A stretch of 64,000 bases of DNA from Deinococcota bacterium (GCA_041695225.1 JBGFRI010000011.1:68653-132652); one strand, 5' to 3'. Shown: positions 41,837-61,372, counted from the first letter of the stretch. Numbers and translations are program-made. The notes: generated by a model not told the origin, from the letters alone.

Positions 41837-43392
41837 TGTCAAGCCATCAATAAATGTTACCGAACCCTCTATCGTCGCTCCATCAAAGACATTACCGAGG
41901 CAGGGCCTCGTTTCGTGCGGTCCGGGGCTCCGAGGGTGACAATAGGGAGGCCCGGTTGCGGGTGAGCTCGTGCAGTGGTGAGTTCGTGCAGTTGTGACAC
42001 GCTCGGCAGCAGTGAGCTTTTGACGCTGCGGCAGAGCGGCCAGGCCATGGATCCGGGTAAGTTTGCGCTCAATCGCCTTGGCCAGCGCGAAGGGGTCGAG
42101 GCGAGCCCGCAGTTCCTGGAGGGTGCGGATCCTGGTGAGATCACCCTGGCCGGAGGCGATGAGGCGGTCCAGCGGGGTCTGCGGCTGGTCGTAGACGCGG
42201 TGGAGCCGGGAGCCGAGGCGGACTTTCTGAACCAGCTTCACCGAGGGCTGGAAGAGGTTCATCATCACGTTTCGCCAGCTGACTAACCTGCGCTATCAGG
42301 CTCCACTCGTGACGGTAGAGGTCGTTGATGGCCGCGAGCGCCTCGGGGGTGTCGTAGCGGTCCCAGCCCAGCAGTTTGCGGACATGGATTAATCATCCTC
42401 GTCCTCGGCCAGTCCGGTAATTAATCGATGGGTCCAGTTTTTCTGCTCGACTAGGTTACGGCTTTGCCGGAATCGCGTAAGCGACTCGCCTCGTGGGCGT
42501 TGTCGTCTGCGGGTGAACTGAATGGAGTAGGTAGTGGAGTGGCCGGTCATGTCTGATGCCTACTTCATCCCGCGGGCCTGGCAGTAGCGAAACAGGTGGC
42601 CATTGATGAACTCGACCCCATTATCGGAGTCCAGGCCCTTGAGCAAGAGGGGCAGGGCCGCGGCGATCTCCTCCAGGGCCTTGTGGACGCCGTACTGGCT
42701 CTTGCCCAGTGCCGCCCGAGTCTCGGTCCAGGCGCTGGCGATGTCGGTAAAGTTCAACGAGTGGAGGTACGAGCCGTCAGTAGCGCCCCCGCCGTGATCT
42801 ACCAGATCGATCTCGCCAAACCCTGGCGCCGTGACCTCCCAGCGATCGGCTTTGATGGGGATGTGGTGTTTGAGGAGGGTACCGGGTTTGGTACGACCGT
42901 ACTGGCGGCGGCTAAGCCGCTGCTTATGCGGCTTTAGCCGGCGGTCTATGGTGCGAGGGCTGATGGCGAGCAACTGCTGCTCGACTGATGGGGGGATAGC
43001 CCAGCGCTGCTTGGCCCAGGGTAGCCAGAGCGGCAGCAGGGCTTTCAGACGCACCGACCAGGGAAAGTCTGCGGCTTCCCAGATGGCCTTGAGCACGGCC
43101 AGCGCCTGGTCTCCATAGGTCCGGGCGGGGGATCGGCGTGAGCGCCCTGGCGGGAGGCGGCCAGCACCCGGATGGCTGCCTTGCGATGATAGCCCAGGGT
43201 GGCACAGAACTCGTCCAGGATCTGCCCCTTGGCCTGTTTAGAGGCTTGGGCATAGCGCTTGCTAACGGCTTGGATATACTCCCGCTTCGACATCGGACTC
43301 ATGGCGAATCTCCATGGAAACAAGGTCAGTCTCGGTAACAGTTTCCATGGCGAGACGATACTCCCTTCGGTAACAGTTTAGATGGCGCGATT
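41837..43392 (-). mobile_element. degenerate ISNCY-type DDE (rve) insertion sequence
   Basis: Transposase fragments RY..ASK..KG.ILDEFC, EIDLV.H.G, DSDNG.EF, DDNAH/VEQKN; long imperfect inverted ends with repeated RTTACCGA boxes, TGT at 41837; 43392 boundary uncertain. Confidence 0.85.
42452..42492 (+). repeat. 41-bp micro-insertion, copy 1
   Basis: Splits DDNAH|VEQKN; matches the reverse complement of 61172-61213 except for one T. Confidence 0.9.
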
Positions 43393-43439
43393 GGGGGGAT
43401 GTTGTCGTTTGAACTTTTTTAGTACACTACAAATCAAGT

Positions 43440-44921
43440 ATGCAACTACGGCTAGATGAGGTTTTCAAAATTTCTGGCGTACCGACTTTCACATTTGTCA
43501 AACCTACCGAATACACTAAGCTTCTGGTTTCCTTGCAAACACCAGGAAGAAGCCTCGTAGTCGAGGGGCCTTCTGGGATCGGTAAAACTACCAGCGTCAA
43601 ACAGGCCTTAAAAGAGTTGGGAATGCAACATTCGGCTACAGTACTCAGCGCCCGAAGACAGTCAGATAGAGAAGTTGTTACCCTAATTCCAGTAATGAAG
43701 GATAACGGCATAGTTATCATTGATGACTTTCATCGCCTTGATAATGATGTAAAAAGCTCTATTGCCGACTTCGCAAAAATCTTGGCAGATGAGGAAGACC
43801 CCAACACAAAACTCATTCTAATTGGCATAAATCGAGCTGGTGAAACACTTGTCAATTTTGCAGCCGACTTGGCAAACCGGATCGACAATATCCGATTTGA
43901 GGCAAATCCTTCAGAAAAAATTGAAGAGTTGATTTCTAAAGGCGAACAGGCACTGAATGTGAAACTATCATCGAAAAGCCAAATCGTAGATGATGCACGA
44001 GGCAGTTTCTACATCACACAGATGCTTTGTCATCATGCTTGTATTTTGCGTGACGTTGCAACTTGCCAACCCGTTCAAAAGACAATTGATGTGGGAATTG
44101 ATGCCATTAAGTTGGGCGTACTAGAGGATGTGTCAAGGCAATTCAAAAACTCCGTAATCAAGTTTGTTCGAGGGCCAAAGTTTAGACCTGGAGGACGGGG
44201 ATCCTATGTTCATCTCTTAAAGTGGATTGCAGAATCTACAGAGTGGTCTATGCACATACGTAGGCGGTTGGCACAAAACCCTGAGCTTCGGCCAAGTATT
44301 GTGCAAATCTTAGACAAGGGTTTCCTGGAAGGTTTTCTTCGAGCCAATGAAGAATTTGGGAATCTACTGCACTACGATCCACACACAGGAATTCTCGTTG
44401 TCGAAGATCCAAGGTTTATGTACTTTATTCGCAACATAAACTGGACTGTACTTGCCAAGGACGCAGGGTTTTTGGAGGTAGAGTTCCCACACAAATACGA
44501 TTTTGCACTTTCGTTTGCTGGTGCAGATCGAATTACTGCTGAAATGTTCGCTGCAAGATTAATTGAAGCCGAAGTTAGTGTTTTCTACGATAAGAATGAA
44601 CAATCATCTATTCTTGCCGAGAATGTTGAAGAGTACTTAGCTCCAATCTATCAGAGCCAAGCAAGATTTGTTGTCGTTTTCCTTACCAATAACTATCCGC
44701 AAAGAGTATGGACCAAGTTTGAGTCCGATCAATTTAAGACAAGAATGGGAGATGGTGATGTTATTCCAATTCGATTTGAAGACTCATCTGAAAGTTTCTT
44801 TAGTGAAACGTCAAAATTGGGAAGTATTTTTATTGACAAATCTAAAGACACTGAAGAGCAGATAGACCAAGCAATTGAGTTGCTTCTCAGAAAAATAGAG
44901 GAGTCTAGAATCAAAAATTAG
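43440..44921 (+). CDS. P-loop ATPase fused to C-terminal TIR domain (candidate defence effector)
   Basis: GPSGIGKTT, IIDDFH; YDFALSFAGADR...VFYD...WTKFE; visibly AT-richer than flanks. Confidence 0.85.
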   Translation: MQLRLDEVFKISGVPTFTFVKPTEYTKLLVSLQTPGRSLVVEGPSGIGKTTSVKQALKELGMQHSATVLSARRQSDREVVTLIPVMKDNGIVIIDDFHRLDNDVKSSIADFAKILADEEDPNTKLILIGINRAGETLVNFAADLANRIDNIRFEANPSEKIEELISKGEQALNVKLSSKSQIVDDARGSFYITQMLCHHACILRDVATCQPVQKTIDVGIDAIKLGVLEDVSRQFKNSVIKFVRGPKFRPGGRGSYVHLLKWIAESTEWSMHIRRRLAQNPELRPSIVQILDKGFLEGFLRANEEFGNLLHYDPHTGILVVEDPRFMYFIRNINWTVLAKDAGFLEVEFPHKYDFALSFAGADRITAEMFAARLIEAEVSVFYDKNEQSSILAENVEEYLAPIYQSQARFVVVFLTNNYPQRVWTKFESDQFKTRMGDGDVIPIRFEDSSESFFSETSKLGSIFIDKSKDTEEQIDQAIELLLRKIEESRIKN

Positions 44922-45186
44922 ATTTCGATAATTGAGCGTGAAACCTACTGGGCCTGCAAGCATCAACTGCCACGGAGATATTCGGGCCATAACTTTTGGT
45001 CAGTCTGAAGTGCGGTTGCAGATTGTTGGAGCTGGTGAGCGCATCGGTGTTTTCACGGATCACGGTACGCTGGCAGTCAGCACCAAGGAGGCGGGCAGTG
45101 CAGGTGAGTATCGCATCCGCACCCCGAGCCCGGCGACAGCTGTTCAGCTGGACGATTGTCCGGTGGTTGATCTAAGGTGAAGCGCT

Positions 45187-45400
45187 TCATACTGCGTGCG
45201 CAACCCCCAGCTCCACAGCCACCGTATGGAGGGGCTTGTCCCAGGTCCACAGCCGCGCATCGCCGGCCAGGACTACCGAAGCCAGTAGGTGGACATCGAG
45301 GTAGCCGAGGCCCCGGCCCATCAGGGCGTACTGGTTAATAAAGGTCAGGGCCTCGGGGTCGGTGGCCCTGGGCATGTGGCGGCCCAGCAGGCAGCAGTTA
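45187..45400 (-). pseudogene. 3' fragment of VapC/PIN toxin
   Basis: GRGLGYLDVHLLAS...LWTWDK; 5' part missing. Confidence 0.7.
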
Positions 45401-45823
45401 CTCGGTTTGGTTCCAATCGAAGGCAAGGGTTTTGACCCAGGGCATATGGGCAAAGTCTTGCGCGTTTTCAGTAACAAGCACCCTGTTGGTTGCCCATGCA
45501 CAGGCGGCAATCATCAGGTCGAAAGCTTTTTTGTGGGGGTTGCGTGTTTTGGGCAAGCCCAGTTTGACCGCTTCTCGGGCGGCTTTGTTGGCGGCCTTTT
45601 CATCAAAAGGTACAATCTCAAATCGCTCAAACAAAGCCTCGATGCTCTTTTCTTGTCGGGGGTCAACCACAAACTCGCCAACTGCATACTCGATCTTCAC
45701 CAGGGCGCTGGTCACAAGCTGCTGGTCCTTGAGCGCCTGCAACACACGCAAAGCCTCCGGCTGCTTGCGCCGGAGGGCAATAAAAAAGTTGGAGTCCAGG
45801 AGAATGCGCCCGGGTATTTTCAT
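45398..45823 (-). CDS. vapC: VapC PIN-domain toxin
   Basis: ILLDSN, FDLMIAA, LVTENAQDF. Confidence 0.9.
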   Translation of the reverse strand: MKIPGRILLDSNFFIALRRKQPEALRVLQALKDQQLVTSALVKIEYAVGEFVVDPRQEKSIEALFERFEIVPFDEKAANKAAREAVKLGLPKTRNPHKKAFDLMIAACAWATNRVLVTENAQDFAHMPWVKTLAFDWNQTE

Positions 45824-46035
45824 TACTGTGTGGCTTTAGCAATGACGCTCTTAGCCCGCTTTCTGCTTCGGACTTTGGAAGCTTTTGCCAACACAGCAAA
45901 CTCACGACCGCTAAAGCTCTTGATGGCTGCGGCCATTTTCTTGGCTCTTGCAGGGGTCAAGGGGGGCATGCCCTCCAAGATAGCCAGCACCTGCGCGGCT
46001 TTTGGGCTAACAGGCTGGATAACAGCGGCCTTCAT
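45823..46035 (-). CDS. probable cognate antitoxin
   Basis: Small basic ORF coupled (TAATG) upstream of vapC. Confidence 0.6.
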   Translation of the reverse strand: MKAAVIQPVSPKAAQVLAILEGMPPLTPARAKKMAAAIKSFSGREFAVLAKASKVRSRKRAKSVIAKATQ

Positions 46036-46306
46036 GTCTCTTATTGTACATCAATACGCACCACTGATCACGGTGATTCCCATTACCAGCCAGGGTCTGG
46101 ACAGTAGCTACCCCGTGCAGCTGCTCCTGCCCTATACCCAGACCGGCTTGCCCAGAGATTCCAAAGCCCAGGTAGCTGATTGGGCAGATCCGCAAAGACC
46201 GTATCGTGCGCCCGCTAGGACGGCTGAGCGCCGAGCTACTGGCCGAGCTTGACCGCAGAATTCGCGAGCATCTGGCATCGTAGTTAGGGATGGCGGGTGG
46301 CTGCGC

Positions 46307-46830
46307 TTAACCACCCAGCTCGGCCCGCGCCAGCAGCTTACGCTTCAGCTCGGGGGTAAGGCGGATGCCGCCGTGCTCCAGCCTGGCGAGATCGTCCTCA
46401 AGCGCGCGGTCGGCGCGCCCCAGACGATGAATGCGTAAGAGAATCCCGAGGGTTCCAACCAGCGGCAGCCCGATACCCTGCGCGTACCTGCGCGCTTTCA
46501 GGTCGTCCAGTACGACCAGGATCGGTGCACCCCCGCCTGCGTGAGATCGAGCGCCAAGGCGATGACCTCTTCCTCGCCGGGGTCAGCCAGGAGGTCGTTG
46601 CGGACTCTAAGCAGCGTCTCGTCACTTGGGTGACGCAGCTCGACCCAGTCGCGCCGGGGGATACTGCTTCCCGGAGCGCCGGGACGAGCGGTGAGTTCAG
46701 CCGCAACTTGCGGGGAAACAAGGACGCGATACAAGCCAGGGAGCAGTGATGTATAGCCCAGCAGGTCGAGAAAGATGAGCGGACTGGCGTCGAAGACCGC
46801 CTCAATCCTGGTGGGCGTGCCGGAGTTCAT
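46307..46830 (-). pseudogene. DUF3368-type PIN protein, frameshift at G5 run (46530-46534)
   Basis: VFDASPLI, DPGEEEVIALA, then DDLKARR..GTLGIL in the shifted frame; +1 G restores 174 aa. Confidence 0.75.
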
Positions 46831-47050
46831 CGTCCAGGTCGTCGGGGGTGAGGTTGGGGTACGGCAGCCCGTGGCGTGTGTACCACTGGACCGCCTCCCA
46901 GCGGCTCATGCCGAGCAGCGTTCCTGCCCTACCAAGGCTCATCCGCCCCTCGCTCACCAGCTTGAGCAGGACACCCTCAAGAACGTCCTGCTGCAACTGG
47001 GGGCCAGCAGCATCGAGAACGTCCTGCGGTAAGTCGAGTCGTACAGCCAT
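46802..47050 (-). CDS. UPF0175-family antitoxin
   Basis: L..EG.MSLGRA..LLGMSR.E...DDLDDEL; AGGGAGG RBS. Confidence 0.85.
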   Translation of the reverse strand: MAVRLDLPQDVLDAAGPQLQQDVLEGVLLKLVSEGRMSLGRAGTLLGMSRWEAVQWYTRHGLPYPNLTPDDLDDELRHAHQD

Positions 47051-47200
47051 TCACCTACCTCCCTTTCATTATAGTAGCGGTTGCAGGGCTAAGCGAAAGA
47101 GTACCCTGCGCCGCGAACTGGGGAAGGAGCTGGTCTTGCTGGCCTGGGCCATAGGGGAATACCGGGCCTGCCCCTTCACTTTGCTGCGGGCTTAAGCGCG

Positions 47201-47452
47201 ATTCCCGCCATCATTGAAACTCTAGTTCGGCGGGGGGCAGAGATAAATGCGCGGAATCAGAGAGGTATGACGCCTCTGCACTATGCGGCGGCCAAAAGCA
47301 CTACTTCAGCCATTGCCGTAACACTGCTAGAGCTGGGGGCCGACCCCAGAGTGCGTACCTCGGCAGGCAGCACTGCCTGGGATCTGATTCAACACAACCA
47401 GAAACTGCGAAACACCCCGGCCTTTCGGCGGCTCAGCGAGATACGGTTTTAG
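47201..47452 (+). pseudogene. ankyrin-repeat protein 3' remnant
   Basis: LVRRGAEINARNQRGMTPLHYAA...LLELGADP; no 5' part. Confidence 0.7.
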
Positions 47453-47649
47453 CAGAAGCACTGACCTGGCCGGGCCTTTCACACCGCCAATCAAACGTGA
47501 GTGTGTTGCCGGCTGTGTACGTGATTGTGCATAACTCTCGGCGATCACGGTGCATCGCTCGGTGGCGATTAATACCCAGGTAGTGAAAGTGGCGATTGCA
47601 GGTATGACAGTAACAGGTTTTCATTGCGGTCTCCTTCTCGTTGGTTGGA

Positions 47650-48402
47650 TCAACCATTCCGCCCCAGTGCCCTCGAGTAACTCTCCGCCACCTGGACCAG
47701 CGAACTCTCAGCATAGATCTGGGTGGTCTTGGGATTGAGGTGTCCCAGGAATTTCTGCAACTGCTCCTGCGGCATCCCCCGGTCTAACAGGATCTGGGCA
47801 ATGGAGTGGCGCAACAAGTGGGGGTAGACTCTTTTGTTAATGCCCGCTGCCAGCGCAGCCTGGTGGATCAGCTTCTGGATGGCCCGCTGGGAGTAGCGGT
47901 TATGCCGGTTGCTCTCAAAGAGGTAGCCCCGGGTCCTTCCTCCGAGGTGCATCCGCAACTCCTGGGCCAGGCCGGTCAGGATAGGCACGTAGCGCACCGA
48001 GTCTTTCTTGGCCTTGGAGATGTATGCCTGGGGAGCCTGGCCGTCGAGGGATACATCCTCCACCCGGAGGTTCACAAACTCGCTGACCCGGGCCCCGGTA
48101 TAAAACAGAGTCTTGAGCATCAGACCGTAGACCGGCTTCTTCTGGTTCAGGCGGTAGGCCGCCTCGAGCAGCTGCTCGATCTCCTGGGCGCTCAGGCGCT
48201 CCACCGTCCGCCGGCGGTTGGAGGGCTGGGTGAGTTCCAGGGCCCGGCGTACCCGCTCGACTACATACTTGGTCTGGTCGTAGTCCAGGTGAGCCTTGCG
48301 CCAGAGGCGGGTGGTCTCTCCGATCACCCACTCCAGCTCAGAGTTCGCTTTCGATTTCTGACCACGCACTTCAGTCAGTTTTAGAGAGGTTTGGAGGTTC
48401 AT
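47650..48402 (-). CDS. tyrosine recombinase (Xer/TnpI-like resolvase)
   Basis: TGARVSE, K, HLLRH, LGH....TQIY catalytic set. Confidence 0.95.
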   Translation of the reverse strand: MNLQTSLKLTEVRGQKSKANSELEWVIGETTRLWRKAHLDYDQTKYVVERVRRALELTQPSNRRRTVERLSAQEIEQLLEAAYRLNQKKPVYGLMLKTLFYTGARVSEFVNLRVEDVSLDGQAPQAYISKAKKDSVRYVPILTGLAQELRMHLGGRTRGYLFESNRHNRYSQRAIQKLIHQAALAAGINKRVYPHLLRHSIAQILLDRGMPQEQLQKFLGHLNPKTTQIYAESSLVQVAESYSRALGRNG

Positions 48403-48424
48403 ATGCCATCAGGATAGCAGAAAT

Positions 48425-48452
48425 AGTTCGCTGTTTGTATCTTGTGCGAACT
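48425..48452. other. dif-like 11-6-11 recombination site
   Basis: AGTTCGCTGTT-TGTATC-TTGTGCGAACT just upstream of the recombinase. Confidence 0.65.
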
Positions 48453-48577
48453 TGTGGGCTGGAGCTGTTCCTCTGTAGGTGGGCTTGATGGAAGAGCGAT
48501 TTGGGTGTTTTTCCGATGGAACCTGGTAGAATTGGCTACCTGAAAGCGTGGATGCGAGCAGTCTGGAGGTACTGAGA

Positions 48578-48787
48578 ATGTCTAAGGTAGAGGAGCTGCA
48601 AAGGGTGGTGGCCTCCTTAACAGCCGAGGAATATCGCGAGTTTCGCCAGTGGTTCCTGGAGCAAGACTGGGAATTGTGGGATCGGCAGATCAAGGAGGAC
48701 TCCCGAGCGGGAAGGTTGGACTTCCTGGTTCGGGAAATACGGGAAGCCCGGGAGGTCGGGGAGCAAGGCACAGTTGAGGAGCGCTGA
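48578..48787 (+). CDS. small antitoxin-like protein without adjacent toxin
   Basis: MSKVEEL...L...E...FR.WF...WD.QI..D..AG.LD.L family. Confidence 0.65.
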   Translation: MSKVEELQRVVASLTAEEYREFRQWFLEQDWELWDRQIKEDSRAGRLDFLVREIREAREVGEQGTVEER

Positions 48788-49101
48788 AGACCCTCGGATC
48801 ACAGACCTGACTGGCCAAGTACGCTCCATAGCCTGTGCGAGAATTTGCTCCCTTCAGGTATCAAGCGTTTAGTACCTCCTGGTAGTTGGCCCTCGAGGCG
48901 TTGTGTTCTGTATACCTGGCTTTCTATCGCCAGTAGCCGGGGCAGTTGCAGGTAGTTTAGGATCAGGCGTTGCATCTTGTGCGAACTTCCGGTATCTGGT
49001 AAAAAGAATCCCCACGAAGAAAAGGACGGTAGGCTTAGTTTAGTGATGGGCAGGTTGCCGTTTACCGGCAATCGTGGTTTTAGGCAGCAGGGCCGCCCCT
49101 A

Positions 49102-50481
49102 TCAACGCGCAGACGGCCTTGAGTTCGATAGTGGCGAGGTCGCGGACAATCCCGACAATGGCACTGGCGAGGTATAGCGTCGTAAGAATTCCTCCCGGTC
49201 TTTCCAGATGAGGTCTTCGAGCCACGCTGCCTCGAAGAGCCGCACCACATGCGGGTCGAACTGCTTGCCCGCATGCATGATTATCTCATTTAGCGCCTCT
49301 TCTGGCGACTTGGCCTTGGCATAGGCCCGCCCTGCGGTCATGGCCTCGTAGGCATCGGCCAGCGTGACCACCCTGGCCCACTGCGGTATGGCCTCAGCCT
49401 TCAGACCGTCTGGGTAGCCGGTTCCGTCCCAACGCTCGTGATGATTCCTTATAACCCCCTGCACATCTTTGGACAGGCGCTGGCGCATGGGATGAAGCAG
49501 CTCCAGCCCCTTGGCCGGGTGACTTTTGATCAGGTCAAACTGTTCAGAAGTCAGCTTGCCTGGGTTCAGCAAAACCGAGTCGGGTATTGCCACCTTGCCA
49601 ATATCGTGAATGCGGGCGGCATAGGTAATACGCTTCTGATCTTGCTCGTCCAGGCCCATCTTTTGTGCAACGCTGTTCGCTATGGACGCCACCCGCTCGG
49701 AGTGCAGCCGGGTAAAGGGGTCTTTGGCATCCAACGCCGATACCAGCACCTCGATGGTATTGTCGAAAGACTCTTCCAGCTTTACCTTTTCGTCCCAGTA
49801 ATAGCGCGAAAAATAGAGCAACAGCATCATAAGCAGCACCGTAAACCCACCCCACCCCCCCACCAGCGGAACCTGATATGCCTTGGCCAGCAACAACCCC
49901 ACCGGTGCCTGCACCAGGTAACTTGCCCAGAGCCAGCCATAGTTTTCAAACCAGACTTTGCGAATACTAACCCCATATAAGAGCTTGATACCATAACTCA
50001 CAGAAGATACATTTACCACAAAATAGACAACCGATGCCGCAAAAATCCCCCCAAAGTCCAGCAGATACGGGTTCAGCCCCGGCTGAGCCTGCACCAGCCA
50101 CCAGACCAGGGCGGCGGCTCCGGTGGCTAGACCATGCTGGGCTCTGTTGAAGAGGTCTTTGTACCAGGAGTAGCTGGCCTGTCCGAAGTCTTTGTTAAAG
50201 TATCCAGCAAAGACCATTACGGCGGCCAGCCAGGCTGGGAAAATGACCACCGCCGCCAGGGCTACCACAAACAAATGCGACATCGAGGCCTGAACCGGCA
50301 GTCTTATTTCAGATCGCTGGGCCATCAGGAGCAGCACCAGCCAGAAGGCTGCGTCGAGAGAATTAAAGCCTGGCTCTGGTGTTAAATTAAAAAGAAAGAC
50401 CAGCAGGGCAACAAAAGACCCCATCAAGCCCAGAATGAAGAGGAGTAGCCTGGTTGGGGGGAGCGAAAGCTGGCGTTGCAC
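49102..50481 (-). CDS. membrane-anchored HD-GYP c-di-GMP phosphodiesterase
   Basis: Multi-TM N-terminus; HSERV, HDIGK, HHERWDGTGYPDGL; leaderless TAGACT-6nt-GTG. Confidence 0.95.
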   Translation of the reverse strand: MQRQLSLPPTRLLLFILGLMGSFVALLVFLFNLTPEPGFNSLDAAFWLVLLLMAQRSEIRLPVQASMSHLFVVALAAVVIFPAWLAAVMVFAGYFNKDFGQASYSWYKDLFNRAQHGLATGAAALVWWLVQAQPGLNPYLLDFGGIFAASVVYFVVNVSSVSYGIKLLYGVSIRKVWFENYGWLWASYLVQAPVGLLLAKAYQVPLVGGWGGFTVLLMMLLLYFSRYYWDEKVKLEESFDNTIEVLVSALDAKDPFTRLHSERVASIANSVAQKMGLDEQDQKRITYAARIHDIGKVAIPDSVLLNPGKLTSEQFDLIKSHPAKGLELLHPMRQRLSKDVQGVIRNHHERWDGTGYPDGLKAEAIPQWARVVTLADAYEAMTAGRAYAKAKSPEEALNEIIMHAGKQFDPHVVRLFEAAWLEDLIWKDREEFLRRYTSPVPLSGLSATSPLSNSRPSAR

Positions 50482-50507
50482 TAGCCCAGTCTAGGGCATA
50501 GCAAACG

Positions 50508-50540
50508 AAAACCGGGTACGGATATCACACCCGTACCCGC
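50508..50540 (-). terminator. intrinsic terminator-like hairpin after peptide gene
   Basis: CGGGTACGG...CCGTACCCG followed by GTTTT on the - strand. Confidence 0.6.
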
Positions 50541-52940: not shown

Positions 52941-53027
52941 AGCCCTTTGTGTCAATACACTACGGCATGGATCAGGGTCGTAAAGCCCTTTGCGTCAATA
53001 AAGCTAGGACACCTATCTCTTTAGAAT

Positions 53028-53996: not shown

Positions 53997-54396
53997 CAGC
54001 GCGAAGTATGCGAACCTTGATTCTCGCTGTGTTGGCTATTTCATGTTCCCACACCCTGATTACTGTCCATCCATCTCGGCGCAATCGCTGGTTATGCAAT
54101 TTAGCTAAAGCAACATTTCGCTTGATTTTGCTCTTCCAATACTCACGGTTTGTTTGGGGCAACTTTCTACGGCAATATGGGCAACCATGCCAAAAACAAC
54201 CATCAATAAACACGGCGACTCTCCGGCTGACAAATGCGACATCGGGCTTGCCAGCGAGGTTTCCGACATTTTTCTTCCATCCCTTCAAGCCCATTCCCGC
54301 AAGCATAGCAAAAAGGCGCTTTTCCAGTCTTGTGCCTTTTCCTTTGACGGACTGCATCGTCCTTCGTCGGTCTTCAGGTCTGAGGTTGTCGCCCAT
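53956..54396 (-). CDS. vsr: very short patch repair endonuclease
   Basis: GKPD, FIDGCFWHGC, YW..KI.RN, RVWEH. Confidence 0.95.
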   Translation of the reverse strand: MGDNLRPEDRRRTMQSVKGKGTRLEKRLFAMLAGMGLKGWKKNVGNLAGKPDVAFVSRRVAVFIDGCFWHGCPYCRRKLPQTNREYWKSKIKRNVALAKLHNQRLRRDGWTVIRVWEHEIANTARIKVRILRAVGRKEQGFEKRIG

Positions 54397-54544
54397 TTTT
54401 CAATAAAAAGGTTCCGGGAGTAGGTGGATCCCTCTGTCAGGACGGGACTCGGGCCTGGTCTAGGTTGCTGTACGGGCTAGTCACGTCCCGAAGGGGGTCG
54501 CCCCTCTGCGCTTTGAAACTGGCTGAGTGGTTCTTGCTCATCTT

Positions 54545-55753
54545 CTATAGTCGCTTAAAGCCTGCGGTTTTTGCGTTCAGTCTATGGGGTTTACTATAGG
54601 GTAACTTCGGTTTAAGTATCGGCGCGCCATGTTCAGCCAGCGGGTTTAGGATATGTTTGGCAATCCAGGAAATCGCGGGCACACATACTGCGTCGCCAAA
54701 ACCCGTAAGCGCTTGAACGCCGTTTACATTGATGGGATACTCGTCCGGAACTCCTTGCAGGCGCGCATACTCTCTCGGCGTCATGGCCCGCATTTTAACG
54801 CAACCTTTGCCCGCTCTTATCAAGAATTGCTTGCCACTTCCACCGACAGCAGTGCGGAGGCAGCCAGATAAATCGTCGTTCCTAACCTCAGCCCGTTGTT
54901 GGTCTTCTCGCCGTCTCCGAAAGAAGGTTCGGTAAGCGAATTGCTTACCCTGAGCTAATTGCATAACTCTTTCACGGTGCGACTGTTTCATCATGGCAAG
55001 ATGGCGGCTGATTTCTTCTTCTGACCACCACCGGCTATCTAAGTCGCTCATTTGCTCGACTATGTTCGACAAACCATCACTGTTGAGTGATGGGGGTTCT
55101 GGAATCTCGCTATAAAACCAACGCAGATCCTTGTTGGCGATGATGCTCTTCTTCAGCAGGTCCGAAAGCAGGGACTTAGGTCGCGTTAGCAGCAAGTCGG
55201 CGGTAGTATGGGTGTGGACAACCGGAAACTTCGTTCCAACAAGAAAGACGCGCAACCGGCTTTGAGGGGTGAACCTTAAAGCGTCCAAGGTGAAAACATC
55301 ACACGCATACCCAAGGTCATTGAGCGCTTGAACAGTGACTCTAAAATCATTTCCTTTGTTGGAATGTAGCCAGCCGGGAACATTCTCCACAAGTATCAAA
55401 GGCGGCGCAGATTTCCCCTGAGCCTTTAGAATTCTCACAAAACCCCAAAATGCGCTTGAATGGTTGCCGTCAATAATTCCGTTCATATTTCCTGCGAGCG
55501 AAAGGTCAATGCAGGGAAATGAGCAAGTAGCTAAAGTAGAAGGTGGAACCTGGGCGGCGTCAACTTTGAAAATGTCGTTGACTAAATAATGCCCTCTAGC
55601 GTCGGGGTAAAACGCTCTATACATTTCATATTTCTTATGGGAAATGTCGTTGGCAAACACCACTTGCCACCCGTAAGGCTGCAACCCCATTCTGACCAGG
55701 CCAATACCGGCAAAGTATTCTGCTACAGTCAAAAGTGATTCTTGTCGCTTCAT
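54545..55753 (-). CDS. C5-cytosine DNA methyltransferase
   Basis: EYFAGIG, SFPC, ENV, PQSR.R, TPREYARLQG, GDAV. Confidence 0.95.
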   Translation of the reverse strand: MKRQESLLTVAEYFAGIGLVRMGLQPYGWQVVFANDISHKKYEMYRAFYPDARGHYLVNDIFKVDAAQVPPSTLATCSFPCIDLSLAGNMNGIIDGNHSSAFWGFVRILKAQGKSAPPLILVENVPGWLHSNKGNDFRVTVQALNDLGYACDVFTLDALRFTPQSRLRVFLVGTKFPVVHTHTTADLLLTRPKSLLSDLLKKSIIANKDLRWFYSEIPEPPSLNSDGLSNIVEQMSDLDSRWWSEEEISRHLAMMKQSHRERVMQLAQGKQFAYRTFFRRRREDQQRAEVRNDDLSGCLRTAVGGSGKQFLIRAGKGCVKMRAMTPREYARLQGVPDEYPINVNGVQALTGFGDAVCVPAISWIAKHILNPLAEHGAPILKPKLPYSKPHRLNAKTAGFKRL

Positions 55754-55799
55754 TTTCCGTTACCTGACCTCAGCACCTGCGAACTACGCCTATTATACA

Positions 55800-55895
55800 T
55801 CTCTGGGACTTCAAACTCAGCCAAGGTGAGGTAGCCCAGCGAGGAGTGGATTCGCCTTTTGCAGTTAACCTCTCCGATGAAGGTCTTGATTTTCG
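55800..55895 (-). pseudogene. IS3-family transposase C-terminal remnant
   Basis: FIGEV..KRRIHSSLGYLT.AEFE. Confidence 0.6.
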
Positions 55896-55929
55896 GAGAC
55901 GTATTTTGCAATCTACGATAGGAGGCAAA

Positions 55930-56451
55930 ATGCGAGAAGCCTTTGATCGTATCAAAAAAGTTGATCCAAGAGCAACACCACAAATCGTGTCATTTAACAG
56001 TCCCGAGTTTGCGGTGCTGATGAATCACCGGAGCGTACCCGACCGGGTGCTCATAGGGCGTTTCACGGTTCCAAGCGAGGCAAACTGGATTCTTCCGAAC
56101 CCGCTACCGATGATAATAAAGCTGTTTAGCGCCGCTGATACCCAGATACCATTAGACTCCAGGCTGGTGCTGGCTAAAAGATCCTCGCTTGGTAACAAAC
56201 CGGAGGAGATCGCGCAAATTCAGTACAGTGCCTATTTCGACCTAACCGTGATTCAGCAATACAACGCTAACTTCTACCGCAGCATTCTTGCTAATCTGTT
56301 TTTACCCAACGATGGCTTTCAGATTCCAGCGATCCGATTCCAGGAAGGAGCGGTGTTGGAAATCTACGTAAAGCCTCCAGTTACCGTAGACCTTACCCAG
56401 CCCGATACTCGCTTCATGTTTCCCGTCGGCCAAAGCAACTACTATCGCTGA
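55930..56451 (+). CDS. orphan homologue of Thermus phage P23-77/IN93 small major capsid protein VP16 (single jelly roll)
   Basis: AGGAGG RBS, 173 aa; end-to-end similarity to VP16 as recalled: M.EAF.RIK, PEF, G.F.VPS.A.W..PNP.P.I.KL, LAKR, QY..Y.DLT, FY..IL, EG.VLE.YV, P.TR...P.G. Confidence 0.8.
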   Translation: MREAFDRIKKVDPRATPQIVSFNSPEFAVLMNHRSVPDRVLIGRFTVPSEANWILPNPLPMIIKLFSAADTQIPLDSRLVLAKRSSLGNKPEEIAQIQYSAYFDLTVIQQYNANFYRSILANLFLPNDGFQIPAIRFQEGAVLEIYVKPPVTVDLTQPDTRFMFPVGQSNYYR

Positions 56452-56585
56452 TGGGCTCAAGCGCTTCGATGTCTTCACCGGTAAGAACCATCACACAAGA
56501 AGCGTCGGTGGCAGGAAGGATGCAAAGGATTCCTGACAGTAACCGCTGTGCGCACCCAAAGCCAGTTTTGTACAATAAGCGCCAC

Positions 56586-57506
56586 GTGTACCGCACCGGC
56601 ACTGCAAGCTGGACCGACAAGAGCCTGCTGGAGGCTGGCTGGTATCCGCCAGGGGTCAGGGGCAGCGCCGAGCTTCAGCTCCGGTACTACGCCGAGCGCT
56701 TTGACCTGGTGGAGTTTGACGGCTCGTACTATGCCCTGCCCCGCACGGACTGGGCCAGGCGGTGGGTGGAAAGGACCCCAGCTGGCTTCCTTTTCAACGT
56801 GAAGGCCTTCAGCCTGCTGACCCGGCACCCTGTGGAAGTAGAGCGGCTGCCCAAAGACCTCAGAGCATTAGTACCCCAGCTTTCTGGCCGGGTACGGGCC
56901 TCGGCCATCCCCCAGGAGGTCGTCGAGGCGGCCTGGGAGCGGTTCCTGGGGTTCCTCGAGCCCCTGGAGCAACAGGGCCGGCTTGGTTATCTCCTCTTCC
57001 AGTTCGGCGACTGGTTTCGCCCTGTTCCAAAGAGCCTGGACTACCTGGAGGAGGTGAGCGTACGGGCCGCAGGCTACACCCTGGCCGTTGAGTTCCGGCA
57101 CGAAAGCTGGTACGCCGCGGGTATATGGCCACGGGTGAGGCGTTTCCTGGAGGAGGCTGGCCTGGTGCATGTGGTGGTGGACGCTCCTGCCCTGGAAGGG
57201 GTTCCTCCCAGGGTATGCGAGGCGACCAGCCAACGCTTCGCGGTTCTACGCTGTCACGGGCGGAACCAGAGCACCTGGAGCGGTCCGCACCAGGCCGCCT
57301 ATCAGCGCTTCAACTGGGCCTACAGCGAAGAGGAGCTGCTGGACCTGGCGGGAGCGGCCCGAGAGCTGGCACAGCAGGCCGAGCAGGTGCATATTGTCTG
57401 GAACAACAACTACGGCAAACAGGGAGTGGAGAGCGCCAGGGCCATGCAGAGGCTGCTGGGCATCGTCCCCTATGCCGGTTTGCAGGGCGCTGAGCCCCTG
57501 AGCTGA
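56586..57506 (+). CDS. DUF72 (YecE-like) protein
   Basis: GTASW, YAERFDLVE.DGSYY, FNVKA, AVEFRH.SW, RCHGRN, WNNN. Confidence 0.9.
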   Translation: MYRTGTASWTDKSLLEAGWYPPGVRGSAELQLRYYAERFDLVEFDGSYYALPRTDWARRWVERTPAGFLFNVKAFSLLTRHPVEVERLPKDLRALVPQLSGRVRASAIPQEVVEAAWERFLGFLEPLEQQGRLGYLLFQFGDWFRPVPKSLDYLEEVSVRAAGYTLAVEFRHESWYAAGIWPRVRRFLEEAGLVHVVVDAPALEGVPPRVCEATSQRFAVLRCHGRNQSTWSGPHQAAYQRFNWAYSEEELLDLAGAARELAQQAEQVHIVWNNNYGKQGVESARAMQRLLGIVPYAGLQGAEPLS

Positions 57507-57577
57507 GCTCTGGTCGGGATGGAGGGCTGAGCGACCGGCCGGCAGTCTCAGCACCACTTACAAAAAGGGAACTGTTA

Positions 57578-57606
57578 TTGACATAAAAAGGGAAAGACGT
57601 TACCCT
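57578..57606 (+). promoter_or_regulatory. sigmaA leaderless promoter of Xre-RES operon
   Basis: TTGACA-17-TACCCT, ATG 6 nt later; AAAAAGGGAA direct repeats at 57562 and 57585 (candidate operator). Confidence 0.75.
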
Positions 57607-57612
57607 CGAGCC

Positions 57613-57981
57613 ATGACCCCAGCCCTGCGCCACACCCTGATTGAAGGCCACAACCCCCAGAGCGGGCGCTTCGATGCCGTCCGGCTGGCCAAGGCGCTGG
57701 GTCTGAGCGTCCCGGAGATGGCGGTGGTCCTGGGCTACACCCCGCGTGGCCTCCGGGCAAATCCCGACTCCAAGAACCTCCAGGCCAGGCTGGGCGAGCT
57801 GGTCAGCCTCATTATTCGGTTGATGGAGGAGCTGGACGGCAGTATGGAGAACGTCAGGATCTGGCTCCACGCGCCCCACCCCGACCTGGGTGGCGTGCCC
57901 CCCTACCAGGCCATGCGGCAGGGCAATTTCGGGGCGGTGGCGACCTTGATCACCGCAATGGAAGAGGGCACCCCGCTTTGA
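57613..57981 (+). CDS. Xre/MbcA/ParS-type antitoxin
   Basis: HTH plus WLHAPHPDLGG..P C-terminal domain. Confidence 0.85.
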   Translation: MTPALRHTLIEGHNPQSGRFDAVRLAKALGLSVPEMAVVLGYTPRGLRANPDSKNLQARLGELVSLIIRLMEELDGSMENVRIWLHAPHPDLGGVPPYQAMRQGNFGAVATLITAMEEGTPL

Positions 57982-58562
57982 GGCCCAAAGAGAGGCTTCG
58001 CGAGGCCCTCGGGGGCCTGGTTCTTTCACCCGCCCAGGGTACCGCCTACCGCCTGACCAGCGTCAAATATATGACCAGTCCGCTCGCCACCGAGGGCGCG
58101 ATTAGAGCCGGTGGCCGGTACAACAAGCAGGGCCGGTTCGCGGCCCTGTACCTTGCCGACACACCTGCTACCGCACTGGCCGAGGTGCAGATGCTCAAGC
58201 TCACCGATAACCGCCTGATCGGGGTCAAGGGCCCGCCCAAGGTGCTGGTCTCCATAGACTATGCCCTGCAAACCGTGTTGAACCTGAACGACCCCGAGGT
58301 GCAGGCTGCACTGGAGACCAGTACCGAGGAGCTTCGGGCCGACTGGGTGCTCCGGCAGCAGAGGGGGCAGCGCATCCCCACCCAGGATCTGGGCGAGGCT
58401 GTGTATGAGCTGGGGAGCGCTGAGGCCCTGTGGGCTCCCTCGGCCCGCCTGAGGGGAGGCTCCAACCTGGTGGTATTTCCCAACCGCTTGCAGACTGGCA
58501 GCCGCCTGACATTGTACGACCCCGAAGGGCTGCTCTCGCTCTCGGTGTCAGGACCGCAGTAA
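57978..58562 (+). CDS. RES-domain toxin (MbcT/ParT-like)
   Basis: GGRYN, ALYLA...TALAE, TQ.LG, PSAR, NLVVFP. Confidence 0.9.
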   Translation: MRPKERLREALGGLVLSPAQGTAYRLTSVKYMTSPLATEGAIRAGGRYNKQGRFAALYLADTPATALAEVQMLKLTDNRLIGVKGPPKVLVSIDYALQTVLNLNDPEVQAALETSTEELRADWVLRQQRGQRIPTQDLGEAVYELGSAEALWAPSARLRGGSNLVVFPNRLQTGSRLTLYDPEGLLSLSVSGPQ

Positions 58563-58780
58563 ACTTGGGAGCCTGCTCAAAGCAAGAGCGTAGTTAGAGG
58601 TTACTCACACCCCGTCCCAGTCCCTGTCCAGTCCTTCACGGTATCCTGGCTGCCCTGCCAAAAGCGGAGCAGCTCCAGCCGCTAAAGCCTACCGTCTACG
58701 CCTGCAAGCCCGGCTACCGCCCGAAGCCCGATCAGGATGGAGATAGACGCTCCGAGTAGGGCATTGCACAACCGCTGCCC

Positions 58781-58838
58781 TTGACCCCAGGTAGTTCTTG
58801 CGCGTATCCTCGAGGCACTACCTGTAACCTTACAGGTA
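58781..58838 (+). promoter_or_regulatory. lexA promoter and perfect palindromic operator TACCTGTAA-CC-TTACAGGTA
   Basis: TTGACC(58781)-18-TATCCT(58805); palindrome at 58819-58838. Confidence 0.7.
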
Positions 58839-58850
58839 TGGGGGTGCGAG

Positions 58851-59474
58851 ATGCAGCTTACCAAAGGGCAGCAGAGGGTGATCCAGCAGATATCCAGGCT
58901 GAAGCAGCAACTGGGGCGGATGCCCAGTGTGTCCGAGCTGAGCGCAGCCCTGGGCTACTCCTACCAGGCATTGCGGCAGCACCTGGGCGAGCTGGAGCGC
59001 AAGGGGTTAGTGGAGGTGGTCTCGCGGGGCCAGGGCCGTACCTCCGAAATCATCCCAACCCTTCAGGGCAAGTCCCTGCTGGGTCTGGGCATCCCGCTGC
59101 TGGGACAGATTGCTGCTGGCCGACTGGAAGACGCCGCCCAGGATCTGCGGGGCCTGCTGGCCCTGCCGAGCAAACCCGGCTTCTATGCACTGGTGGTGGA
59201 GGGCGACTCGATGGCCGACTACCTGGTGGAAAACGACATCGTGATCGTCCGGGCTACCTCCGAGTTCCGGCAGGGCCAGATCGCCGCGGTCTATCACCAG
59301 GGCCGCACCACCCTCAAGTACGTCTACCGCAAGGGGGCGCGGGCCGAACTCCGCCCCCACAACCCCAGATATCCCCCCATTGTGCTACCGGCCAGTGAGC
59401 TACAGGTGCAGGGGGTCTACGACAGCCTGATCCGGGGTGGCCTGATTTCCCAGCTGCTGGAGGTGGTCATGTAA
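58851..59474 (+). CDS. lexA: LexA repressor (cassette-associated)
   Basis: PSV.EL, IAAG cleavage site, GDSM Ser, TLK Lys, PHNP.Y. Confidence 0.95.
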   Translation: MQLTKGQQRVIQQISRLKQQLGRMPSVSELSAALGYSYQALRQHLGELERKGLVEVVSRGQGRTSEIIPTLQGKSLLGLGIPLLGQIAAGRLEDAAQDLRGLLALPSKPGFYALVVEGDSMADYLVENDIVIVRATSEFRQGQIAAVYHQGRTTLKYVYRKGARAELRPHNPRYPPIVLPASELQVQGVYDSLIRGGLISQLLEVVM

Positions 59475-59609
59475 CCCTACCGCACCTGCGACTTTAGGGC
59501 ACGCTCCGCCGGGAAGCTGAACCGCGCCCTCGCCCATAGCACCCAGGGCCTGGCCCTGGAGCAGTCATCTACTGATCTGGTGGTCTGGCCAGTATAGCAG
59601 GTTTTACCC

Positions 59610-60896
59610 ATGCCGAGAAGTCATAATTCAGGTTCTGGACAGCTCCTAAAGCCGCTTCTGCCCGCCCCGGCAGCAGCCAGGCGGCCCGCGGCACGACCGG
59701 CGGCTGCCCCGAGCATCACCGCGTTCTGGCTGGCCGATCCACCAACCTGGGCGCTGGGCCGGCTAGATCGCCAGATATTCTCCCAGGTGCCCCCCGACAG
59801 ACCCGTCTTAGCTGTATCGGGGGAGCGGGTGGTGGGCAGCAACCTTGCGGCCAGAAAGGCCGGCGTGCGGCCCGACGAGACCCTGAGCCGGGCCTTGCAG
59901 CTCTGCCCCAGCGCGCTGGTACACCCGCACGACGATGCAGCCATGCTGGCGGCCTGGGACAGCGCGATAGCCACGGCCTATGGCCTCAGCCCCTGGGTGG
60001 AGTCTGAGCGGGTGGGGCTGGTCCTGGTGGGTGGTCTGGGCCCTGGCGAAGCCCACGACCTGGCCAAAGCTACCCAGACCCGAGCCGGCCAGGCCAAAAG
60101 TCGCAGCACCGCCCAGCTGGCCGCGCTGACCGCCCCCGAGGGAGGCGCCCGGCTGGTTCCCAGCGAAACCGCCTTTATCGCCCAGGTTCCGGTGGGGTAT
60201 CTGCTGGGCCTGGGCTTCAGCCAGGACCTGATCGAGCGGCTCCGCCTGTTCGGGGTGGATCACCTGGCCGATATCCACCGCCTGGGCCTGACCCAGAAGC
60301 AGCTCGAGGCCCAGTTCAACAGTGAAGGCCGGCGTCTCTACCAGGTGGCCCACGGGCAGTTCACCCAGCCTGTCCAGCGCTTCCAGGAACCCCAGGTGGC
60401 CAGGGCACGCTGGGAGTTCGAAGAGCCTGTTACGGAGCCTTACCAGTTCATGCCCGTCCTGCACCTGCTGGTAGGCCAGGCAGCTACTGAGCTGGGCAGC
60501 AAGGTCTGCTGGACGGTCACGGTGGGGGTGGAATACCGGGTGAGCCGGGGGCTCGGCCGCCGGGTGCTGGGCGCGGCCAGCGGCAGCCCCCAGAAGCTCC
60601 TGCACGTCGCGGAGGCGGTCTTCCGGGACGCCCATACCCCCGGGGCGGAGATAGAGGCGCTCGAGGTCACCCTTGGGCGCATCGTCCTGCCCACCGCCCG
60701 GCAGCAAGACCTGTTCGGGGTCTTCGAGCGCCCCCCGGTCTGGGATGCCCTAAAGCGGGTGGACGCCCGCTATAACGGGGGCATCGGCAGGATGGTCTTC
60801 AAAGCCTTCCACCGCTTCAGGGAAGAAGGGTGGTCCTTCAAACCGCTCGGCCCCAGCCAGCAGGCCCAGGTGGGGGATGGGAGGAGGCTGCGGTGA
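59610..60896 (+). CDS. imuY: ImuY/ImuB-like Y-family polymerase-related protein
   Basis: N.AARKAGVRP...L..A..LCP, SPWVE, ERLRLFGV, clamp motif QQDLF; cassette context. Confidence 0.8.
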   Translation: MPRSHNSGSGQLLKPLLPAPAAARRPAARPAAAPSITAFWLADPPTWALGRLDRQIFSQVPPDRPVLAVSGERVVGSNLAARKAGVRPDETLSRALQLCPSALVHPHDDAAMLAAWDSAIATAYGLSPWVESERVGLVLVGGLGPGEAHDLAKATQTRAGQAKSRSTAQLAALTAPEGGARLVPSETAFIAQVPVGYLLGLGFSQDLIERLRLFGVDHLADIHRLGLTQKQLEAQFNSEGRRLYQVAHGQFTQPVQRFQEPQVARARWEFEEPVTEPYQFMPVLHLLVGQAATELGSKVCWTVTVGVEYRVSRGLGRRVLGAASGSPQKLLHVAEAVFRDAHTPGAEIEALEVTLGRIVLPTARQQDLFGVFERPPVWDALKRVDARYNGGIGRMVFKAFHRFREEGWSFKPLGPSQQAQVGDGRRLR

Positions 60897-60901
60897 AGGC
60901 G

Positions 60902-61372
60902 TTAGCGTTTCACCAACTTCCGCAGCCGCGGCAAGGCTTGCTGGGGGGTTTGTACACTGGTTTTACCGATCTTTTTGAGGGCCGTGATGTGCCGGTCGTC
61001 GCTCACCAGCAGGCTAGCCCTGGCCTCCAGGGCGATGGCCGCGATGAAATCGTCATGGGGGTCGTCGGGAACTATAAAGGGTATAGACTGGGGGTTCAGC
61101 ACCACTGCCCGCAGCCTGAGCAGGTTGATCAGCGCCCCGAACCTGGCCCTGCCGATGCGCCGCTGGGCCACGAGGCGAGTCGCTTACGCGATTCCGGCAA
61201 AAGCCGTAACCTACCTGCGCCTGCTCACGCGTCGCAGCTCCTCGAGCTGGGCCTCGGAGGTGTACAGGGTGCAAGCCCCTTGGGACCAGAGCATCAACAG
61301 CTCCGACTCCACAGGAAAAAGCGCCCCTTGCAGGGCACGGATGTAAACCTGAGTATCAAAGACGACCCTCAG
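60902..61372 (-). pseudogene. PIN-family toxin disrupted by 42-bp insertion with two stops; CTG start
   Basis: RVVFDTQV...EELRRV [insert] ...DPHDD...LVSDDRH. Confidence 0.85.
61172..61213 (-). repeat. 42-bp micro-insertion, copy 2
   Basis: TAGGTTACGGCTTTTGCCGGAATCGCGTAAGCGACTCGCCTC. Confidence 0.9.

Follow-up and report, generated by a model that had tools for sequence, protein, structure and literature searches.

A 41-bp folded element with exact, duplication-free insertions in a Meiothermus genome

How does one and the same 41-bp sequence come to interrupt two unrelated genes, on opposite strands, of a single bacterial genome? The question is raised by a 64,000-nt stretch of a Meiothermus metagenome-assembled genome (MAG), which is referred to below as the window (contig C12, positions 68653-132652, of the host genome G000; 2.83 Mb, 50 contigs, 92% complete). 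A preliminary description of the window had noticed this sequence, named here element E, in a transposase and in a PIN toxin gene; its coordinates and strands proved correct. Copy 1 lies at 42452-42492 on the plus strand (41 bp, TAGGTTACGGCTTTGCCGGAATCGCGTAAGCGACTCGCCTC, TAGG...CCTC) within a DDE transposase pseudogene, where it separates the codons for DDNAH from those for VEQKN. Copy 2 lies at 61172-61213 on the minus strand (42 bp, with an extra T in the loop of hairpin 1), in sense orientation within a PIN-like gene, to which it adds in-frame TAG and TAA. The 27-nt core of E has two matches in the window and none in 100 dinucleotide-preserving shuffles, and a covariance model (R1) scores copy 1 at 52.5 bits (C12:111104-111143) and copy 2 at 45.6 bits. 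The data presented below leave little doubt that E is a real mobile element with precise insertion free of target-site duplication; how it moves is a matter of graded proposals, which are weighed after the evidence.

Homologues of the two interrupted genes bear out the earlier claim that removal of the element restores both reading contexts. The flanks of copy 1, read on the minus strand, are ...FSSPADDNAH↓VEQKNWTH... (here and below, an arrow marks the insertion point). The closest full-length homologue, P0001 (420 aa, PF00665; 79% identical to the neighbouring 178-aa fragment), carries DDNAHVEQKNWTHVR unbroken, in the context ...RPYKKDDNAHVEQKNWTHVRKLLGW..., and since the motif is contiguous in this protein, excision of copy 1 restores it. 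The interrupted gene is a pseudogene regardless of E because it bears further lesions: it spans 41606..43323 on the minus strand in at least four open-frame pieces (43045-43323, 42560-43096, 42389-42550, and 41606-42268). It is of the rve type, with 6556 homologues of about 420 aa that contain PF00665 (the sequences of P0001 and P0091 were inspected) and a weak match to the IS481 family (E=9.5e-5); it is single-copy in G000 and was not found in 25 congeners. In the second gene, the sequence reads ...EELRRVSRRR before the insert and VAQRRIGRARFGAL... after it, and the 144-aa homologue of the congener G001 reads ...RRVSRRK IAQTRIGKAKFGAL..., i.e., ...EEIRRVSRRKIAQTRIGKAKFGAL..., gap-free across the site of copy 2. 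The two stops arise because the insert, in the frame of the gene, begins with TAG and contains TAA. It separates a C-terminal part of 89 aa, downstream of the insert (60902..61171, minus strand), from an N-terminal part upstream of it (61214..61375, minus strand), which was read by eye against the 144-aa G001 open reading frame (ORF) and whose start codon is not fixed. The PIN assignment is weak, as the matches to PIN_3 (E=0.0057) and TIGR00305 (E=0.025) are both below curated cut-offs.

The two window copies belong to a large set. A blastn-short search of G000 gave 48 matches, which comprise 43 solo copies, four units of a tandem array, and one remnant, i.e., part of an E copy split by a nested copy. 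The solos are dispersed over 23 contigs, with 22 on the plus and 21 on the minus strand. Their 39-nt core (AGG...CCT) is identical in 28 of the 43; eight have one change and five have two, and the remaining pair consists of a degenerate copy and the 42-nt form. The element is 41 bp long, N-AGG...CCT-N, usually TAGG...CCTA or ...CCTC, and the terminal bases are far more variable than the interior (TA 23, TC 11, GA 4, CA 3, and TG 2). The GAGG end accompanies a GCAA loop in solos of the congeners G013, G023, and G024 and in one G000 copy, and the terminal bases look heritable within subfamilies. Copies are found in both orientations, in coding and non-coding DNA, in other repeats, and even inside another E; three of the six frames of E contain stops, and the frame is shifted unless the copy is 42 nt long. 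The 43 near-identical copies, together with the exact pairs of filled and empty sites described below, sustain the earlier description of E as an ultra-small mobile element and show that a lineage-specific burst gave rise to the G000 set; the element has been recently active. The preliminary description had named two findings that would overturn it, namely an assembly or adapter artefact and the terminus or scar of a known insertion sequence (IS). E is not an assembly artefact, since its contexts are many and unique and since contigs from several runs and other Meiothermus genomes have it as well, and no IS with E ends was found. Filled/empty polymorphism cannot be followed in the Logan contigs of four runs, which stop within the repeat, and in a related population (X12, Logan contigs) there is a 179-bp difference around copy 1, which is not a clean empty site. 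The tandem array (C23:472-638, L012) consists of four units of the MITE-type module (MITE, miniature inverted-repeat transposable element; see below) with a 42-bp period; head-to-tail E-E junctions were not found in the G000 assembly. The array, which has no Rfam match, is intergenic and lies upstream of an ORF on the minus strand that looks thiolase-like by eye. An internally deleted E was also seen at C34:38780-38791, where AGGT is joined to AGCGACTCGCCTA and about 17 nt are left.

The mode of insertion can be read from comparisons of filled and empty sites among paralogous repeats, orthologous sites in congeners, and protein homologues, in which the inserted unit is exactly 41 bp and occasionally 42 bp. 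At a host repeat, at three sites on contig C38 (s2-s4), and at the PIN and transposase sites, the net insertion equals the length of the element with no duplicated flank, and no target duplication or target deletion was found at any resolved empty site, in agreement with what had first been noted for the window copies. E goes in as a complete unit, between neighbouring nucleotides of the target, which stays undamaged. E has no terminal inverted repeats; its ends share only TAGG/CCTA (4 nt). The host repeat is a sequence of about 180 bp in G000 with the central palindrome CCTCTCCCC-TGGT-GGGAGAGG, followed by CTGGGTGAGGGG, and is present at about 20 loci (e.g., C34:28560-28760 and C17:116913-117091). 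Four of its copies contain E, between the T and the G of the palindrome loop (CT↓GGT), and in at least five empty paralogues the flanks abut with gap 0. The filled repeat seems to have multiplied, because its E copies each bear private substitutions. The three C38 sites are empty in two, six, and three congeners, with a net difference of 41 bp each; one of them is within a stretch conserved like coding sequence, and one is filled in the congener G017. In the nested pair at C34:61472-61537, the inner copy is inserted between C16 and C17 of the outer one. MITE copies with zero and one module differ by a 41-nt unit within a hairpin loop, so that insertion into the loops of two different palindromic repeats, the host repeat and the MITE, is shown. 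In G023, an ORF resembling RlaP (PF10127) reads through a 42-nt E copy, which gives 14 extra residues, YEVTALPESRKRLA; the insert is absent from four homologues (56-81% identity), and a fifth (93%) has a decayed version. Besides the PIN-like gene, then, E disrupts three copies of transposases and a conserved coding region. In G024, E sits at an identical position in two copies of another rve-type IS (L003 on C6 and L010 on C203; C-terminal ...LESFRQHYNAQRPHQA...), which indicates that E also spreads by riding in IS. At three sites common to G000 and G017, E is identical at 121 of 123 positions and the flanks at 1023 of 1137 (90%); a binomial estimate gives a probability of about 3e-4 for two or fewer differences in 123 at a 10% rate at these three sites. 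Constraint or concerted evolution might lie behind this difference, or, with three sites, chance.

The choice of target is loose. Among the 43 solos, C is found at position -1 in 26 and at -4 in 25, and G at +1 in 29, at +2 in 22, and at +4 in 26; the information per target position is at most 0.46 bit, and the preference is roughly C↓G(G/T)nG. The element was first described as site-selective and as lying directly 5' of GTGG. The selectivity stands as this weak bias, without a fixed target, and GTGG does follow both window copies, but as a rule it fails, being found 3' of only six of the 43 copies genome-wide; the commonest flanking 4-mers occur at 4/43 sites on the left and 6/43 on the right. 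Flank stems of at least 5 bp were found at 4/43 sites, all four in the same host repeat. When flanks were searched against the genome, pairs matched another locus only for host-repeat and tandem or adjacent copies; the other solos are unique at the search threshold. The orientation and position of E relative to neighbouring ORFs are mixed (context based on ORFs and GC3, with crude gene calling). Two further candidate rules were rejected. The terminal bases are not derived from the target at the host repeat, where the empty ...CCCCT↓GGT... cannot supply the final C, and a TA or CTAG target duplication does not apply, as there is no TA in the empty sites.

The ability of E to fold, pointed out from the window copies, is now backed by covariation. 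The fold is a three-helix Y, in which both ends form a closing helix of 3-4 bp that carries two hairpins, one of 7-9 bp with a T-rich triloop and one of 4 bp with a GYAA tetraloop. Single-sequence folding is modestly better than that of shuffles (z -1.3 to -2.3), and it is the covariation rather than this score that supports the fold. In a gap-free set of 19 distinct modules (closing helix 2-4/39-41, hairpins 5-11/15-21 and 22-25/30-33), pairing is kept in 95.9% of cells of the Y model; both-sided changes are present in 4 of the 14 pairs (9 cells), with at least one such pair per helix. In 500 shuffles, neither the covariation score nor the count of doubly changed cells ever came up to the observed values, and sliding the partners by 1-3 columns gives zero. 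Compensatory changes thus maintain the fold, i.e., there is selection among element lineages. A G023 variant, CGGGTAGCCGCTCTGCGGCTATGGCGCAAGCCACTCCGCCC, has other sequences in each of the three helices and yet retains the architecture and the GCAA loop; its surroundings are MITE-like but its own, and its tandem period is exactly 41 bp. Exact 41-bp tandem units are also present in G009.

E belongs to a Meiothermus-wide family of 41-nt Y modules that are also internal modules of a MITE. Of 24 other Meiothermus genomes sampled, 8 contain the 22-nt core with up to two mismatches; 16 genomes drawn from four further families of the order gave no match. A covariance model of the unit gives 48-49 matches in G000 and, at E<=0.001, detects it in 14/68 family genomes: 12 of 25 other Meiothermus, one of three of a second genus, and none of 32 of the largest genus. 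The number of modules outside G000 varies from 0 to 35, and among congeners including G000 from 0 to 48. A related unit, TAGGTTCCGGCTnnGCCGGAATCGCGyAAGCGACTnnGCC(T/G), is found in G003, G008, G009, G013, and G022, where it occurs at different loci in a MITE of about 165 nt with the terminal inverted repeats ATACCAACTCTGC...GCAGAATCGGTAT. The units sit in the central hairpin loop of the MITE in one to four tandem copies; it can be seen from MITE copies without any unit (six in G013 and three in G008) that they enter a CGCGCC/GGCGCG hairpin at its 4-nt loop. Similarity between array loci stops about 60-70 nt on either side, and no homology at E<1e-10 was seen among the ORFs that flank six of these loci. 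An array of type III toxin-antitoxin RNA (ToxI-like), in which repeats of about 36 nt lie immediately upstream of a conserved toxin gene, was considered and rejected, as the arrays have one to four units without a conserved adjoining toxin gene. Rfam 15 contains no matching family: the best match, naRNA4, has E=0.36, and six loci gave none at E<=0.1. Modules of 53-54 nt with an enlarged first hairpin (…CTAGTGCTTTGCACCAG…) were also observed in G013, in tandem arrays of two to three (L109-L111 on C33, C85, and C7).

Four sister families, E2-E5, were found in G000 by k-mer clustering, partial BLAST matches, and a scan for element starts; they have the ends AGGTTAC...CCT and the Y layout of E with other hairpins. 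E2, TAGGTTACTCGCATAGCGAGTATGCGCTACGCGCACCCCCT, is 41 nt long and has ten copies (C10:56206-56246, C22:16781, C25:61305, C34:63766, C35:28977, C36:42619, C37:4084, C46:24187, C49:14632, and C1:31084). At the C37 site, the element is absent in 11/11 aligned congeners, in a region too variable to fix its edges. E3 is E2 with 45 nt added between its two hairpins (86-87 nt, six copies: C7:13027, C7:16067, C10:70334, C14:90821, C22:80034, and C36:141452) and is the sole sign of longer members with E-type ends. E4 and E5 are single copies, and E5 consists of the first hairpin of E with a different second hairpin.

What could move such a unit? A mover has to act in trans, because 41 nt cannot encode a protein. 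It is close to an even chance, in our judgement, that E is a non-autonomous, structure-defined micro-transposon, moved in trans and probably as folded single-stranded DNA. The enzyme would recognise the folded strand, since E encodes nothing and is defined by its fold, not by inverted-repeat ends. The preliminary description had suggested a single-stranded DNA or RNA intermediate with an enzyme supplied in trans, and this is plausible because E lacks coding capacity and its fold is kept by covariation; for the DNA version in particular, a structure-dependent single-strand route with a trans enzyme, the odds in our view fall somewhat short of even. The substrate along this route would be the folded single strand of the 41-mer, in which the closing helix would set both ends side by side, and because the ends are so juxtaposed, it is proposed that one active site could cut both. 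Once a strand-transferase had cleaved the foot of the closing helix, the donor flanks would be joined or left, and the 41-mer would be transferred into DNA exposed as a single strand, possibly with hairpin loops and C↓G-rich steps as preferred sites. Such peel-and-paste or copy-and-paste would be formally like that of the HUH Y1 single-stranded DNA transposases. A stronger version, in which the 41-nt Y modules form a distinct class of structure-defined single-strand micro-transposons with the fold as their sole cis requirement, seems to us rather doubtful. In that version, the two hairpins would serve as handles, a host-encoded or other strand-transferase would excise and insert the unit without target duplication, and the Y units would be building blocks inserted in the hairpin loops of larger MITEs.

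Several observations weigh against the movement of E as a folded single strand by a trans enzyme. Among known systems, the IS200/IS605 elements move as single-stranded DNA and insert precisely, with no terminal inverted repeats or target duplication; their ends carry similar hairpins, a fixed tetra- or pentanucleotide lies 5' of the element, and insertions show a replication-strand bias. E resembles the miniatures of this group in the absence of target duplication and terminal inverted repeats, in its precise insertion, and in having hairpins near the ends. It differs from them in that a fixed 4-5-nt target is absent among the 43 copies and the two hairpins are unlike each other. No association was detected between the strand of E and local GC skew (Fisher p 0.12-1.0; mean absolute skew 0.025, contigs unordered), a test with little power because the skew is weak in G000. 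Targeting of hairpin loops as a general rule was rejected, since, the MITE sites apart, flank stems occur only at the host repeat. A structure at the RNA level, too, would be compatible with the conserved GYAA loop. The search for an enzyme that moves E identified none. The sole Y1 HUH gene of G000 (PF01797, C8:43106-43459) belongs to an IS605-type element, a tnpA followed by a tnpB-like ORF, with ends unrelated to E, and contig C8 contains no E copy. Y1_Tnp is present in 18 of 26 genus genomes, several of them incomplete MAGs, and is unrelated to module count: it is absent in G009 (five modules) and G024 (three modules) and present in the module-free G001, G007, and G011. IS110 (PF01548), found in 7/26 genus genomes, is likewise uncorrelated with module count.

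Among the alternatives, the one closest to this proposal holds that E is a minimal deletion derivative, with fused ends, of an unseen autonomous IS whose transposase mobilises it, comparable to the palindrome-associated elements derived from IS200/IS605. It overlaps with movement in trans as described above, and we regard it as improbable, though worth serious thought. Its best argument is E3: as this is E2 with 45 nt between the hairpins, it points to a left cis module (TAGGTTAC with hairpin 1) and a right cis module (hairpin 2 with CCCCT) around a dispensable middle, and E5, which pairs hairpin 1 of E with a different hairpin 2, fits the same modular view. The parent IS might be missing from the 92%-complete MAG or be located on another replicon or a phage, and multicopy IS are commonly lost from MAGs. 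However, the longer autonomous relative that the preliminary description had suggested looking for (HUH, IS110, or reverse transcriptase gene flanked by this sequence) was not found with E ends. In G000, all 16 matches of the E2 left end were E2 or E3, partial BLAST matches gave E5 and one internally deleted copy but no parent, and a scan for AGGTT with the start of a hairpin, too noisy with its 311 matches, revealed only E4. Of two metagenome scans, that with the E2 left end gave no loci, and that with the right half of E/M gave 11, comprising four MITE-type loci, two IS-borne E, and five chance matches, with no split element. Plasmid and phage collections contained no match for a longer element, and the single IS605-type element of G000, as said, has unrelated ends. 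An RNA route, in which the module is transcribed (MITE arrays or a master copy being possible sources), cut down to single units, and reverse-transcribed, with the cDNA inserted at breaks or nicks, would account for a GNRA-type tetraloop (GTAA/GCAA) on a covarying three-way junction, typical of structured RNA, and end heterogeneity or untemplated addition would yield variable first and last bases. We consider it quite unlikely. Reverse transcriptase (PF00078, RVT_1), which matched in 3/26 genus genomes, was not found in the four richest in modules (G000, G013, G023, and G008), and this absence from copy-rich genomes disfavours the route; there are no poly-A-like or primer-derived tails, the targets are undamaged at all resolved empty sites, and the terminal bases look heritable, as in the pairing of GAGG with the GCAA loop.

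Two further accounts turn less on transposition of E itself. E could be a motif useful to the host, such as a terminator, a stabiliser, a protein-binding site, or another structured RNA or DNA signal, conserved and spread by selection. The slow change of E relative to its flanks at the three sites shared with G017, the conservation of the fold across species, and the in-frame retention in the RlaP-like ORF of G023 are in keeping with this, and usefulness is compatible with mobility. The idea is, in our view, quite unlikely: E disrupts the genes listed above and carries stops in half of its frames, the copy number ranges from none to 48 among congeners, and function alone would not explain exact 41-bp units at new sites. 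The least probable account, to which we give only a slender chance, is passive spread: E would hitch-hike in larger repeats, be multiplied through slippage or recombination, or be captured as a free 41-bp fragment when double-strand breaks are repaired by end joining. Part of the distribution does fit it, since four E lie in the host repeat, two in the G024 IS copies, and modules in the MITE; slippage could enlarge tandem arrays, and variable terminal bases resemble end-joining noise. Yet the other solos, in contexts unique at the search threshold, have the same exact boundaries, and no resolved empty site shows the small deletions or insertions usual for end joining.

Compared with described repeats, E groups with the very small mobile repeats of the kind known from Nostoc. 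The small dispersed repeats (SDR) of Nostoc punctiforme and its relatives, reported by Elhai and colleagues in 2008 (Genome Res 18:1484), are reportedly 21-27 nt long and cyanobacterial. They share with E a length far below 100 nt, apparent insertion as whole units (also into other repeats), a common predicted fold, and the absence of coding capacity. E differs in its length of 41 nt, its occurrence in Deinococcota, its three-helix Y with covariation, and its exact orthologous, paralogous, and protein-level empty sites. From MITEs derived from DDE transposons it is set apart by the lack of terminal inverted repeats of at least about 10 bp and of a target-site duplication. The BOX elements of Streptococcus pneumoniae have the composition boxA-(boxB)n-boxC, and a free-standing boxB is not known to have been described. 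The Meiothermus module is also free-standing and dispersed, with exact insertion boundaries. A Porphyromonas gingivalis MITE contains an internal minisatellite (PMC4596501), and both it and BOX resemble the Meiothermus MITE of about 165 nt, with its conserved flanks, which bear terminal inverted repeats, around zero to four internal 41/42-nt modules.

Repeats inside genes have their own precedent. Rickettsia palindromic elements (RPE) lie in frame within protein-coding genes. E resembles them in its intragenic copies and in the 14-residue in-frame insert of the G023 RlaP-like protein; it differs in being 41 nt long, frame-shifting unless 42 nt, and stop-bearing in three of six frames, and both window copies break genes. 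In PMC3184786, RPE are tabulated as small repeats of about 105-146 nt. Repetitive extragenic palindromes (REP) and the REPIN formed from them are GC-rich, structured, multicopy sequences of about 35 nt, for which an HUH Y1 enzyme, the REP-associated tyrosine transposase (RAYT), is the proposed mover in trans; each REP is one imperfect palindrome with a GTAG head, and REPs lie outside genes, form inverted doublets, and flank the RAYT gene (PMC3116915, PMC3184786). E is alike in being small, structured, and multicopy without classical terminal inverted repeats or target duplication. It is unlike REP in having three helices with a TAGG/CCTA closing helix instead of a single GTAG-headed palindrome, in lying also inside genes, and in not being paired, as nearby E copies are direct or kilobases apart; moreover, no RAYT was found, the only Y1 gene of G000 being that of the IS605-type element with tnpB, without flanking E. 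The literature searched, from which most subscription journals were missing, describes no repeat of this kind for either Meiothermus or Thermus, which does not prove that none is in print.

How repeats too small for transposase-binding inverted repeats spread has been a standing question since REPs and the cyanobacterial SDRs were described. Few mobile DNA elements whose filled and empty sites can be compared directly are as small as E, which offers a clean handle on this question: boundaries exact to the nucleotide, many filled/empty pairs, 28 identical copies from a recent burst, and a fold defined by covariation, to which are added sister families with swapped hairpins and a module that doubles as MITE cargo. 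Concrete substrates follow from it, namely 41-mers of either strand with their flanks, and the phylogenetic contrast between 0 and 48 copies can be used for an enzyme search. For annotation, E matters as a silent breaker or extender of genes, as in the PIN-like and transposase genes and the RlaP-like protein. If the Y modules were indeed a distinct class, they would be the smallest transposable units with defined ends, and their mechanism would lie outside the current IS families.

Some neighbouring features and minor observations remain to be recorded. A second, unlike micro-insert is found 24 bp from copy 1 in the same transposase pseudogene (40 bp, 42388-42427, ATTAATCATCC...GGTAATTAATCG). 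It has inverted ends of about 9 bp and a 4-bp direct repeat, ATGG, at 42384-42387 and 42428-42431, splits ...NWTH↓VRKLLGW... of the homologue, and has about a dozen related copies in G000; it looks like a classical tiny MITE with target duplication, unlike E. Directly upstream of the PIN-like gene, and overlapping it, is a 79-aa ORF (61369..61608, minus strand) with no Pfam family at E<=0.01, whose position, as a matter of inference, would be compatible with an antitoxin role. Beside the transposase pseudogene, a plus-strand ORF of 493 aa (43440-44921) combines an N-terminal P-loop/STAND-like NTPase with a C-terminal TIR domain (TIR_2, E=3.8e-10) and is likely a defence gene, and another of 1361 aa (37308-41393, plus strand), with an NPPW motif seen by eye, resembles on the same by-eye reading a fused restriction-methylase type protein. 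The k-mer clustering of G000 also revealed three CRISPR-like repeat types (29-30 nt and 36-37 nt), a family of 292 segments around AAGGTCTAAGGTCTGCGACGG, a family of 93 segments, and a core of about 41 nt, CATTGCGAGGAGGCC...GCAATCC, which is part of a larger repeat.

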